DNA from: a phage
DNA length: 64,000 nucleotides
Reading direction: 5' to 3' (one strand)
Sequence record: PZ476263.1
Shown: piece after piece, positions 18,965 through 20,824 of the stretch
Position numbering within the stretch: position 1 is the stretch's first letter
Layout of the letters: every line of letters starts with the position of its first letter
Translations under genes and position numbers: made by a program
Notes under the pieces: model-generated
The model's database searches: none
The model's input: only the letters and a program-made list of their open reading frames with translations
Told to the model about the DNA's origin: nothing

Positions 18965-19047
18965 GCGCGGGTGTATCTCAACGGTCTTCTAAACCGTCGT
19001 TAATCGAGTAATTGGAGTATGAAGGTTCGAGTCCTTCCTCCCGCGCT
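18965..19047 (+). tRNA. tRNA-like element, atypical (canonical anticodon arm with UCU and T-arm, but no canonical D-arm or encoded CCA)
   Basis: acceptor GCGCGGG/CCCGCGC; ACGGU-CUUCUAA-ACCGU anticodon hairpin; GAAGG-TTCGAGT-CCTTC T-arm. Confidence 0.35.
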
Positions 19048-19064
19048 AAGTTCTTTTAAATGCA

Positions 19065-19140
19065 GGCCCTTTAGCTCAGTGGTTAGAGCAGGCGACTCAT
19101 AATCGCTTGGTCGCTGGTTCAAGTCCGGCAAGGGCCACCA
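19065..19140 (+). tRNA. tRNA with CAT anticodon; anticodon stem and acceptor resemble enterobacterial tRNA-Ile2 (lysidine) rather than elongator Met
   Basis: GGCCCTT acceptor, GCTC/GAGC D-stem, GGCGA-CTCATAA-TCGCT anticodon arm, TTCAAGT T-loop, encoded CCA. Confidence 0.8.
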
Positions 19141-19157
19141 CTCAATAGTTTATTTAC

Positions 19158-19249
19158 AAGATCATTCAGTAATTAAGCGAATGCCGGAAGCAGAACCGGA
19201 TCAACAAATGCGTACGGGTGTCATCGCCACCTAGCAACTGAATGATCTT
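19158..19249 (+). other. long stem-loop RNA element (13-bp perfect inverted repeat flanking 66 nt), followed by U-run; possible terminator or small RNA
   Basis: AAGATCATTCAGT (19158-19170) and ACTGAATGATCTT (19237-19249); internal CCGG-aagcagaa-CCGG hairpin. Confidence 0.45.
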
Positions 19250-19332
19250 TTAAATTCTCTTAACCTCATAAAATCCTTGACATAATAAGAAATTCCTGAT
19301 AACATCTCTATATCGACTTAATTGAGGTGCTT

Positions 19333-19707
19333 ATGCCTAAAGCTGAAATCGTTACTAGAAAACGGGGTCGGCCTACTACAGAGGAAAGTATCGCTATCAA
19401 CACCGAGAAGGCGATTCTTCATGCTCGTTCAGAGTTTGCAAGACTTACTCCTCAGGCGATTAAGACTCTGGAAGGTCTACTCACTTCCGGTACAGAGAAA
19501 GTTAAAGAAACTACTGCGAAGTATATTCTTGAACAGGCTGAAAAAGCTAACAATCTGTACACGATGGAAGATAATGAGGAAGATTTAGCGGGAGGTTCAA
19601 CTTCTGCGGATTCTGATACTCATAAAGGCCCTTCTGATGTATTTAAGGATGCAATTCCTCTTACTACTCAAATCAGAGAGTATAAAATTGCAGAAGGTGA
19701 AAACTAA
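19333..19707 (+). CDS. hypothetical protein with N-terminal basic KRGRPT segment
   Basis: 124 aa from ATG at 19333. Confidence 0.4.
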   Translation: MPKAEIVTRKRGRPTTEESIAINTEKAILHARSEFARLTPQAIKTLEGLLTSGTEKVKETTAKYILEQAEKANNLYTMEDNEEDLAGGSTSADSDTHKGPSDVFKDAIPLTTQIREYKIAEGEN

Positions 19708-19728
19708 AGGCTCTTAGGGGCCTTTTAT
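19707..19728 (+). terminator. putative intrinsic terminator
   Basis: AGGCTC-ttag-GGGCCT hairpin followed by TTTTATT. Confidence 0.4.
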
Positions 19729-19946
19729 TAATAGTTCTTTTTAATGTAGTTGCTTGGTGTAATTTTTCGGCAGATGGCTGCAACCATCCTATCGATAACT
19801 CATAGTTAGTGCTGCAAACACTGGCTACCTTAAAGAGAATTTAACTCGTCGAATAAGGAAGATGCTGATCTCAAAGTGAGGTCACTTACCGCAAGGGGTG
19901 TGCATAGACTCCCGCTTCCGAATAGACTATGTGGCGAGATGTATTT

Positions 19947-20028
19947 GGGGACGTGGCAGAGCGGTCGAATGCGCCTGACTGTAAATCAGGTATCCCACAC
20001 GGTGGTTCGAATCCATCCGGCCCCACCA
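19947..20028 (+). tRNA. tRNA-Tyr (GTA)
   Basis: CCTGA-CTGTAAA-TCAGG anticodon arm, GGTGG-TTCGAAT-CCATC T-arm, acceptor CGGCCCC-A-CCA; overall like enterobacterial tRNA-Tyr. Confidence 0.75.
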
Positions 20029-20282
20029 AATTAAGAAGCAGGGTCGCTACCTGCAAGTCGTCGGACTGAGATTCCCTGAATAAGACCCGACTTTAAGGCG
20101 TACAAATGTTCGGTTTAAAGTCCCTTATCTCACAGTCGAAACGGCGCATCCTATTCAGCCGTGATGTGATGTAATCACTGACCTCTTTGAAGGATCATGG
20201 CATCCTATACAAAAAAAAAACCTGAATAATTTAGGTTTTAATGCCTGGGGGTTCGTAGCCCTATTACTAAGAGGACTTAACT

Positions 20283-20492
20283 ATGTTTACTATTAAAATT
20301 ATTGATATCGATGGAAATGAGACGGGTGTTTCAACAAGGCACTACAGATGGTACTCAAAAATGAATATTTTTGATGTGGAGGGTGGAGAATCTGTTTCTG
20401 TACCACCAAAAAGTCGTGCTTATGTAATGAATGACAAAGGAATAACCATCGGTAGATACACAAATACAGCGGATCAACGCGTTCTTAATTAA
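20283..20492 (+). CDS. hypothetical protein
   Basis: 69 aa ORF between tRNAs. Confidence 0.35.
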   Translation: MFTIKIIDIDGNETGVSTRHYRWYSKMNIFDVEGGESVSVPPKSRAYVMNDKGITIGRYTNTADQRVLN

Positions 20493-20493
20493 A

Positions 20494-20568
20494 GCGGTCA
20501 TCGTATAATGGACATTACCTCAGCCTTCCAAGCTGATGATGCGGGTTCGATTCCCGCTGACCGCTCCA
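20494..20568 (+). tRNA. tRNA-Gly (TCC)
   Basis: GCGGTCA acceptor, TCAGC-CTTCCAA-GCTGA anticodon arm, GGGTTCGATTCCC T-arm, CCA encoded. Confidence 0.8.
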
Positions 20569-20667
20569 AACACATATCCATCTGACGCGTTTATGGGGTT
20601 GACCTGATCAATCTTCTCCTAATTTCGTGTGAAGACATCATGATTGTTGGGATGGATAAACTTATTT

Positions 20668-20742
20668 TGGGGATTAGCCAAGCGGTAAGGCATCGGATTT
20701 TGATTCCGACATTCACTGGTTCGAGTCCAGTATCCCCAGCCA
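20668..20742 (+). tRNA. tRNA-Gln (TTG)
   Basis: TGGGGAT...AAGCGGTAAGG...CGGATTTTGATTCCG...GGTTCGAGTCC...CCCCAGCCA; very close to E. coli tRNA-Gln. Confidence 0.85.
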
Positions 20743-20747
20743 ATTAA

Positions 20748-20824
20748 CGGTGTGTAGCGCAGCTTGGTAGCGCATCTGGTTTGGGGCCAGAGGGCCGTTG
20801 GTTCGAATCCAACTACACCGACCA
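20748..20824 (+). tRNA. tRNA-Pro (TGG)
   Basis: CGGTGTG TAGCGCAGCTTGGTAGCGCA TCTGG-TTTGGGG-CCAGA ... GGTTCGAATCC ... CACCGACCA; very close to E. coli tRNA-Pro. Confidence 0.85.

Follow-up and report, generated by a model that had tools for sequence, protein, structure and literature searches.

A tRNA cluster of an rV5-like Escherichia coli myophage with a tRNA-Ile2 gene and a sixth, putatively rewired tRNA-Arg(UCU) gene

What does a phage gain from the transfer RNA (tRNA) genes clustered at positions 18,965 to 20,824 of the stretch analyzed here from sequence record PZ476263.1, and which codons would these genes serve? The stretch comprises 64,000 nucleotides of phage DNA, referred to throughout in its full length as the window, and the original prediction had recognized in it a cluster enriched for rare-codon decoders, including a tRNA with the anticodon CAU that resembles tRNA-Ile2. 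The segment 18600-21000 matches the Escherichia coli myophages A7_1, A5-4, A73, W70, LTH01, and UPEC06 at 91-94% identity, all of them belonging to a small Vequintavirinae group with genomes of ~140-145 kb, and the source phage is accordingly an E. coli myophage of the rV5-like kind (Vequintavirinae). Its closest kin, A7_1 and A5-4, have E. coli K-12 MG1655 as their isolation host, in keeping with the host range at which the original prediction had hinted. Phage tRNA clusters, phage tRNA-Ile2 genes, and the idea of codon supplementation are already established; as for this region, we consider it probable that it is an rV5-like tRNA module of six tRNA genes that adds decoders for codons enriched in the phage, the sixth being a rewired tRNA-Arg(UCU).

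Five of the genes are canonical. ARAGORN calls five tRNA genes in the window and no more, each of them on the + strand and inside 18965-20824, and the Rfam tRNA model agrees with it, giving them scores of 58-71 bits (gathering score, 29) and E-values between 1e-10 and 1e-13. The set that had been predicted (CAT, Tyr-GTA, Gly-TCC, Gln-TTG, and Pro-TGG) is thereby upheld, as is the presence of an encoded CCA in each gene, N73-CCA being read directly in the DNA. The accompanying view that the Gln and Pro genes are nearly identical to those of E. coli did not survive comparison, since the identities are 86% and 83%, respectively, and the near-identical genes are those for Ile2 (99%) and Gly (Table 1).

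The gene with the anticodon CAT has both of the features by which it had been likened to tRNA-Ile2, namely the anticodon arm GGCGA-CTCATAA-TCGCT and an acceptor stem that starts with GGCCC, and comparison with the host bears the likeness out. It is matched over its full length in every one of the 5,426 complete E. coli genomes searched, and all of these matches are annotated as tRNA-Ile; the best of them, at 75/76, is an allele of ileY, the chromosomal gene beside glaH/ypjA (tRNA-Ile in RefSeq), followed at 73/76 by ileX, which lies beside mug/rpoD and is also a tRNA-Ile in RefSeq, whereas metT/metU of K-12 reach only 55/78 and the initiator tRNA falls outside the top five. The acceptor stem GGCCCUU/AAGGGCC contains C4-G69 and C5-G68, which are positive determinants for E. 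coli TilS (PMC2500205, PMC1635315). The anticodon stem GGCGA/UCGCU contains C29-G41 together with G27.U43, an anti-determinant that blocks acetylation by TmcA (PMC2500205, PMC1635315), and A37 and A38 are present in the 7-nt anticodon loop CUCAUAA. With A73 and with U12-A23 in the D stem GCUC/GAGC, all of the IleRS identity elements considered are in place, these elements including A73, U12-A23, C29-G41, A37, and A38 (PMC9976931, Table 1 therein). In tRNA-Met, by comparison, U4-A69 and A5-U68 are negative TilS determinants, and C27-G43 stands in place of G27.U43 (PMC2500205). Judged by its sequence, the CAU tRNA is a tRNA-Ile2, in which host TilS would convert C34 to lysidine, after which IleRS would charge the tRNA and AUA would be read. 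That it might be a tRNA-Met, elongator or initiator, is extremely improbable: ARAGORN does label it tRNA-Met, because the program reads the anticodon alone, and the annotation of LTH01 names a tRNA-Met at the same locus, but such a tRNA would have to combine an identity of 55/78 to metT/metU with one of 75/76 to ileY, to possess C4-G69, C5-G68, and G27.U43, unlike tRNA-Met (PMC2500205), and to be nearly identical to E. coli genes that RefSeq annotates as tRNA-Ile. The CAU tRNAs of rV5-like phages are routinely mislabelled tRNA-Met, which gives the assignment a practical value for annotation.

The codons that these tRNAs would read were counted in 73 non-overlapping open reading frames (ORFs) of at least 80 amino acids in the window, amounting to 53 kb of coding sequence, and in 40 ORFs selected in the same way from positions 80-130 kb of E. 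coli K-12; the content of guanine plus cytosine is 41.3% in the window and 52.2% in the E. coli sample. Both codons that had been expected to be enriched are so, AGA occurring 9.1 times per 1000 codons in the window and 1.2 times in the E. coli sample (7.5x), and AUA 11.0 and 3.1 times (3.5x). The corresponding frequencies are 19.8 and 7.0 for GGA (2.8x), 23.0 and 5.3 for CCU, 23.6 and 15.2 for CAA, 11.5 and 7.6 for CCA, and 22.5 and 13.3 for UAU. Among the 61 sense codons, AGA ranks first in enrichment, AUA fourth, and GGA eighth, and the six Watson-Crick cognate codons of the phage tRNAs are enriched over the remaining codons (Mann-Whitney p = 0.0026). Use of AUA, AGA, and GGA is 2-3x higher in the + strand genes at 20.9-58.8 kb than in the minus-strand genes, and AUA and AGA codons are many in the ORFs at 42.8-58.8 kb, which are tail/baseplate-like genes. 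We propose that Gly(UCC) reads GGA, Gln(UUG) reads CAA, and Pro(UGG) reads CCA and CCU, with the sixth gene supplying an Arg(UCU) decoder for AGA; the tRNAs would in this way add decoders for codons that are 1.5-7x commoner in the phage, especially in its tail/baseplate genes, and that in E. coli are served by single-copy minor tRNAs. The original description of a cluster of rare-codon decoders holds in so far as AUA, AGA, and GGA are enriched, and it does not extend to Tyr, which is no rare-codon decoder. Taken together, the codon data are compatible with codon supplementation in its classical form, applied to late genes of moderate expression, and they are no proof of it. Codon usage is also sharply split inside the late region, with 27707-29887 and 40008-41909 on one side and 42.8-58.8 kb on the other.

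The sixth gene, 18967-19045, lies at the start of the cluster (18965) and is presumably the AGA decoder to which the original prediction alluded; a supplier of such a decoder is indeed found there, although it is not a canonical tRNA. ARAGORN makes no call for it, and the Rfam tRNA model scores it at 35.8 bits, in an alignment that keeps the acceptor arm, the anticodon arm, and the T arm, reduces 15 model positions of the D arm to 4 nt, and inserts 20 nt before the T arm. The gene has a 7-bp acceptor stem, a 5-bp anticodon stem with a 7-nt loop (U33, purine at 37), and a 5-bp T stem with a GTTCRA loop. Its acceptor and anticodon stems are 7 nt apart and it forms no D-arm hairpin (positions 9-26), for which reason we did not file it as a canonical tRNA. 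The anticodon loop, CUUCUAA, equals that of E. coli argU. A5-4 and LTH01 have the gene with an unchanged sequence, and A7_1 departs from it by one C-to-U change, which turns a T-stem G-C into G.U, whereas the spacers next to it diverge among these relatives. Two other interpretations were tried and rejected: a variable-arm hairpin UUAAU/AUUGG, in which the substitutions do not covary, and the reading as 'tRNA-Leu(taa)' found in the record of 121Q, for which position 37 would have to be a pyrimidine and which lacks a flanking stem; the hairpin with CUUCUAA, by contrast, is canonical.

Homologues of the sixth gene are found by blastn in 271 phage records from unrelated groups, comprising Felix O1-like, 121Q-like jumbo, phi92-like, Klebsiella Vequintavirinae, Sugarland (Demerecviridae), and Streptomyces phages, always inside tRNA clusters and mostly unannotated or entered as 'tRNA-OTHER', 'tRNA-TERM', or 'tRNA-Leu(taa)'. 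A pattern made from the 3' half retrieves 71 IMG/VR contigs, and the same pattern finds only four short contigs of metagenome-assembled genomes among 185,579 bacterial and archaeal species genomes; the family is conserved and essentially phage-only. The members could be aligned without ambiguity, the structural alignment comprising 49 distinct sequences and the counts of anticodons and CCA ends being made over 54 members. Across the whole structure, 94.6% of the alignment cells are paired, compared with 65.4% in shuffles, and the covariation score is 0.749 against 0.186, a value reached by 0/500 shuffles. The acceptor, anticodon, and T stems are paired in 99%, 95%, and 99% of the cells, respectively, with covariation in each. 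In the 5' part of the core, the 7-bp acceptor stem is followed by an invariant UAU, and the C-N-N-N after this UAU pairs with an N-N-N-G located 7 nt 3' of the anticodon arm. The outer pair of this extra helix is an invariant C-G, its central pairs vary (UA:29/GC:13/AU:7 and CG:41/GC:5/UA:3) with zero unpaired cases, and its inner position is mostly a mismatch, like position 26.44 of normal tRNAs. Taken alone, the extra helix has a covariation score of 0.450, compared with 0.083 +/- 0.022 when shuffled (0/500) and with at most 0.045 when its partners are slid. The 7 nt form a bulge, CGUUAAY, 3' of the anticodon stem at the usual place of the variable loop, and a 12-nt linker, UAANUGGAGUAU, runs straight into the T stem. 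This linker resembles the D-loop of tRNA-Arg(UCU), which reads AGUUGGAUA in argU and AAUGGAUA in the tRNA-Arg of T4, and the positions that it appears to share with a D-loop are A14, A15, G18, G19, A20, A21, and U48. A covariance model separates the family, at 83 bits or more, from canonical tRNAs, at 35 bits or less, and the window copy scores 97.5 bits with family model R1, near the top of the range. Two divergent members, L087 2689-2763 (57 bits) and L063 13348-13426 (53 bits), have the anticodons ACG and UCU and a shorter bulge, and the architecture therefore spans several arginine isoacceptors.

These pairings lend themselves to a topological interpretation in which the two strands of the D stem have been swapped in order, so that the helix encloses the anticodon arm and the D-loop serves as the linker to the T stem. 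The canonical links 9-10, 21-22, and 47-48 would then be replaced by 9-22, 47-10, and 21-48. The helix of 3-4 bp would stack on the anticodon stem and give ~9 layers, as against 10 in the normal stack of D stem, position 26, and anticodon stem; the contacts U8-A14, A15-U48, and G18/G19 with the T-loop could all still form, and the sixth RNA could plausibly adopt a full L-shape in which G18/G19 touch the T-loop, instead of having a floppy loop as a substitute. Its amino acid is suggested by the family as a whole. The anticodons, which were left free in the search pattern, are UCU in 51 members, CCU in two, and UCG in one, hence all of them arginine anticodons, CCU and UCG being the two single-base changes, and the only ones, by which UCU stays an arginine anticodon. 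Bacterial ArgRS recognizes A/G73, C35, U/G36, and A20 as determinants (PMC9976931). In the family, 51/54 members have A or G as the discriminator, no member departs from C35, and U or G stands at position 36, none of which was fixed by the pattern; the base at the A20 position (the A after GG) is A in all members, and since the pattern fixed it, it is no independent evidence. A CCA is encoded in 32/54 members. The distribution of canonical genes also counts in favor of a tRNA-Arg, in that contigs with large tRNA sets have canonical Arg tRNAs with ACG, CCG, UCG, GCG, or CCU, never UCU. Felix O1 has 25 canonical tRNAs, including Arg-ACG, and no canonical Arg-UCU, with the rewired element at 25,951-26,029, which ARAGORN misses there too, and rV5 has the canonical Arg-UCU and no rewired element. 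A tRNA that has no D arm is usable by EF-Tu and the ribosomes of E. coli (PMC11551756), and the sixth RNA would be expected to receive its CCA by addition, to be arginylated, and to take part in decoding. We advance it as a tentative proposal, in our estimate almost as probable as its negation, that 18967-19045 belongs to a phage-specific functional class of tRNA-Arg with a core rewired in the manner described, which would be L-shaped, charged by ArgRS, and active on bacterial ribosomes in decoding AGA (in its variants AGG, CGA, and CGN). Literature searches for D-arm-less or rewired phage tRNAs and for the invariant strings, made in a collection with few subscription-journal papers, returned no description, although an earlier one may exist. 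According to a paper of 2024, every bacterial tRNA known is a cloverleaf (PMC11551756), phages are absent from a review of non-canonical tRNAs published in 2020 (PMC7609411), and the rewired tRNA-Arg appears to be undescribed.

Against this picture of a decoder-supplying module with a working sixth gene there stand a number of observations. The ORFs at 27707-29887 and 40008-41909 (five consecutive-looking structural ORFs on the + strand) contain zero AUA or AGA codons, and they include structural genes that are probably very highly expressed (e.g., 28156-29151 and 40008-41423), so that any benefit would be limited to moderately expressed late genes; ACU, UCU, AAG, CUU, and ACA have a larger absolute excess and no phage tRNA for any of them; and the Tyr codons are enriched ~1.5x only. 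RNAalifold, applied to the family, predicts only the three classical arms and does not favor the extra helix by energy, and we accept that helix because of the covariation counts, not of its energy. As for the window copy, it encodes no CCA (G73 is followed by CUA), it has a U6.U67 mismatch, which recurs in two other family members, and its leader 18962-18966 pairs with its trailer 19045-19049, lengthening the acceptor helix to 12 bp. It belongs in this respect to an extended-stem subclass (seven sequences, with the window lineage counted twice) whose members have no CCA and whose leader-trailer pairing extends the acceptor helix to 12-16 bp. In one IMG/VR contig, L049 (1522-1692, - strand), an extended-stem CCA-less copy lies 15 nt upstream of a canonical Arg(UCU), the only co-occurrence of a rewired and a canonical Arg(UCU) seen, and given this case the subclass may not be a plain replacement of the canonical Arg-UCU. 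The absent CCA, the acceptor-stem mismatch, and the leader-trailer helix, as well as the position of the same subclass next to a canonical gene in L049 and that of the sixth gene 20 nt downstream of a conserved structured RNA, would all suit an element that is no working decoder, be it a relic in decay or a tRNA-like module that serves processing or acts as a decoy, the processing version offering, for example, RNase P, RNase III, or RNase Z a recognition site and so freeing the neighboring structured RNAs. We regard this explanation as unlikely, for the window copy retains all family-invariant nucleotides and its high score with the family model, its sequence is nearly invariant in A5-4, LTH01, and A7_1 despite diverging neighboring spacers, the anticodons of the family vary within arginine only, which would be needless for a pure processing signal, and AGA is the most enriched codon, with no other AGA decoder in the window. 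The CCA-less phage tRNAs of T4 mature in E. coli and thus provide a precedent for CCA-less phage tRNAs in this host.

A different objection concerns the purpose of the tRNAs rather than their identity. The tRNA-Tyr of the window shares only 57/85 positions with E. coli tyrU, contains an A5.G68 mismatch, and has a variable region of 10 unpaired nt as against a 13-nt stem-loop in E. coli. A variable stem-loop of the E. coli type is the cut site of Septu and of retron-Eco7 PtuAB. The tRNA-Tyr of T5 escapes by virtue of a distinctive variable loop (PMC13096335, PMC11555353), and phage tRNAs rescue cells from such nucleases, tRNA-Thr from OLD, tRNA-Lys from AriB, and tRNA-Tyr from PtuAB (PMC12445682). 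By analogy, the atypical variable loop suggests an anti-defense role as a serious alternative for tRNA-Tyr, and in its broader form the argument would make the phage tRNAs, chiefly Tyr and possibly the rewired Arg, nuclease-resistant substitutes rather than codon suppliers, which would sustain translation when Septu, retron-Eco7 PtuAB, PARIS, or OLD-type nucleases cut host tRNAs. In its favor are the presence of a tRNA that decodes no rare codon, the unpaired stretch in place of the stem-loop in it, and the rescue reported for phage tRNAs (PMC12445682), and a radically changed core could hide tRNA-Arg from a nuclease that reads structure. We give this broader form a fair hearing and somewhat doubt it, because the Ile2 (99%) and Gly (95%) tRNAs are near-identical to host genes and would be cut likewise, the anticodon loop CUUCUAA of the Arg family is identical to that of argU, no nuclease was found that targets tRNA-Arg(UCU) via the D-arm, and the tRNA set matches the over-represented codons significantly. 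That same match speaks against a neutral origin, under which the host-like tRNAs would be passengers without a selected function that arrived through gene conversion or illegitimate recombination. What invites this explanation is the history of the Ile2 gene. LTH01, A5-4, and A7_1 have a different CAU tRNA at its position, followed by an RNA D-like RNA, and this tRNA keeps the GGCCC acceptor start and the GCGACUCAUAAUCGC anticodon arm while its D, variable, and T regions differ. In the window, ~200 nt (19065 to ~19265) are replaced by an ileY-like tRNA and a lambda-like structured element, with flanks that are 96-100% (left) and 80-92% (right) identical to A7_1 and A5-4. The best match to the Ile2 gene in any phage record is 96.1%, and ileZ of Stx phages reaches 90.8%. 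No contiguous source of the Ile2 gene and the lambda-like element that covers at least 80% of the query was found in the 5,426 E. coli genomes, and the best candidates, P1/D6-like plasmids, hold the two parts ~480 bp apart at 89% identity. The simplest reading is that the cassette would be a recent replacement, or a gene conversion, with host-type sequence, the donor not being found among the E. coli genomes searched. The swap relative to A7_1 and A5-4 and the lack of a phage match above 96.1% mark the region as a recombination hotspot, and both would be expected of neutral passengers. Such an origin nevertheless seems to us quite improbable for the tRNA set, as a CAU tRNA with the acceptor and anticodon arm of Ile2 is kept at the locus in every relative examined, and T4 independently has the combination of Ile-CAU, Arg-UCU, Gly-UCC, Gln-UUG, and Pro-UGG as well.

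The position and layout of the cluster are set out in Table 1. Genes run leftward left of ~16.6 kb and rightward from ~17 kb toward the spanin, terminase, and structural genes, and the tRNA cluster sits at this junction of the leftward genes with the rightward lysis/terminase/structural genes. The six tRNA genes apparently would be read from two sigma-70-like promoters, and an intrinsic terminator would close the unit; we infer both the cluster-wide transcription units and a benefit to fitness. Interspersed among the tRNA genes are two small ORFs and several conserved structured RNAs. Beyond the cluster, a group I intron (Rfam RF00028, 78.7 bits) occupies 22986-23290 (+) between the ORFs 22148-22825 and 23293-24420, and the large terminase gene is apparently split by it; in the record of rV5 the terminase is annotated as joined across a gap that contains an endonuclease VII ORF, and LTH01 has an uninterrupted terminase gene of 1488 nt.

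Table 1. Features of the tRNA locus, in window coordinates
Feature	Position	Strand	Evidence
Sigma-70-like promoter TTGACA-17-TAAGAT, upstream of first RNA block	18640..18668	+	Consensus scan, 10/12 matches; consensus match only
Structured non-coding element, ~140 nt, homologue of unannotated T4 rIII/30.9 intergenic region	18801..18941	+	82% identity
Non-canonical tRNA-Arg(UCU), with flanks; body 18967-19045, anticodon TCT 18988-18990	18962..19049	+	Rfam, family model R1, family covariation
tRNA-Ile2, anticodon CAT at 19098-19100, CCA encoded	19065..19140	+	ARAGORN, Rfam, E. coli comparison, TilS determinants from sequence
Structured element, ~95 nt: 12-13 bp closing stem, 66-nt conserved core	19158..19252	+	7 covarying stem pairs; minimum free energy (MFE) z = -4.1
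Sigma-70-like promoter TTGACA-17-TAACAT, with TG	19277..19305	+	Consensus scan
Small ORF, 124 amino acids, PHROG 3330	19333..19707	+	
Conserved non-coding spacer	19733..19844	+	180 phage records, 73-86% identity
tRNA-Tyr(GUA), CCA encoded	19947..20028	+	ARAGORN, Rfam
Homologue of T4 RNA D (species 2 RNA)	20030..20150	+	86.5% over 52 nt, 84% over 25 nt; z = -2.2
Small ORF, 69 amino acids, PHROG 3909	20283..20492	+	
tRNA-Gly(UCC), CCA encoded; E. coli glyT identity 71/75	20494..20568	+	ARAGORN, Rfam
tRNA-Gln(UUG), CCA encoded; glnU/W identity 65/76	20668..20742	+	ARAGORN, Rfam
tRNA-Pro(UGG), CCA encoded; proM identity 65/78	20748..20824	+	ARAGORN, Rfam
Intrinsic-terminator-like hairpin then T run; ends tRNA block before spanin and terminase genes	20872..20893	+	

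Rfam, searched at E <= 10 over 18400-21100, returned no family for any spacer or structured element, and these elements are best described through their homologues. The element homologous to the rIII/30.9 region of T4 shows compensatory changes in two helices and an MFE z of -3.5, recurs within phi92-like tRNA clusters, and is apparently co-transcribed with the tRNAs. The covarying stem pairs of the element behind tRNA-Ile2 were seen across three lineages; it has counterparts between orf-64 and S of phage lambda (44,857-44,941), within the tRNA cluster of rV5, and beside a tRNA-Ile in P1/D6-like plasmids. The conserved spacer is common to phi92-like, Cronobacter PBES 02-like, phiLLS-like, and other phages, and it folds no better than shuffles (z = -1.6). 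The homologue of RNA D begins 2 nt after the CCA of tRNA-Tyr and shows two compensatory pairs in its 5' hairpin. Another RNA D-like copy stands right behind the CAU tRNA in A7_1 and A5-4, and RNA D seems always to trail a tRNA; its function is not known even in T4 (PMC3014915, PMC9697503). A low-stringency blastn search of the whole window with T4 rnaC for a homologue of RNA C (species 1) gave only T-loop-like words. T4 RNA D and at least two other structured RNAs thus travel with tRNA genes across unrelated phage families.

If the proposal for the sixth gene is true, it would represent the first tRNA of natural origin that serves bacterial translation without being a cloverleaf, encoded by model phages such as Felix O1, phi92-like phages, and 121Q, and the capacity of phages to decode AGA would be under-annotated. 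ArgRS, EF-Tu, RNase P, and the ribosome would then tolerate a rewired core in nature, which would also be a natural scaffold for the engineering of orthogonal tRNAs, and the question would be raised of what selects for the fold, e.g., escape from a tRNA-targeting defense.

Several known systems can be compared with the module. The tRNA region of T4 (eight tRNAs and the stable RNAs C and D) has 5/6 anticodons in common with the window, namely Ile-CAU, Arg-UCU, Gly-UCC, Gln-UUG, and Pro-UGG, and in both phages the tRNAs decode A-ending codons favored by an AT-rich phage. The T4 counterparts are nonetheless less similar to the window genes than the E. coli genes are, with identities of 69% for Ile2, 83% for Gly, 75% for Gln, and 67% for Pro; the Ile, Ser, Pro, and Gln tRNAs of T4 have no encoded CCA, whereas all five canonical tRNAs of the window do; rnaD follows tRNA-Arg in T4 and its homologue follows tRNA-Tyr in the window; and the tRNA-Arg of T4 is canonical where that of the window is rewired. 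In rV5, a tRNA cluster is found at the corresponding place in the genome, upstream of the genes for spanin and terminase; tRNA-Tyr, the CAU tRNA, tRNA-Pro, and the lambda-like structured element are common to it and the window, but it includes a canonical Arg-UCU as well as Ser and Thr tRNAs and no member of the rewired Arg family. The E. coli genes ileX and ileY are nearly identical to the CAU tRNA of the window, which has all known TilS and IleRS determinants, and the Stx lambdoid phages (ileZ-argN-argO) likewise pair an Ile2 tRNA, that is, the ileZ compared above, with AGA decoders; unlike all of these, the window gene resides in a lytic myophage. The rewired family itself recalls the D-arm-lacking mitochondrial tRNAs (e.g., mt-tRNA-Ser(AGY)) and the engineered mini HisT, which also have no D hairpin while their other arms are intact, with the difference that the phage family would keep equivalents of the D stem and D-loop in rewired form, in a helix that encloses the anticodon arm. 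It resembles the allo-tRNAs and tRNA-Sec in being natural, non-canonical, and found by sequence mining, some of them in phages (PMC5389517), yet those tRNAs (8/4, 9/3) have an altered acceptor/T branch and keep the D hairpin, whereas in the phage family the 7/5 branch is unchanged and the D/anticodon branch is the altered one.

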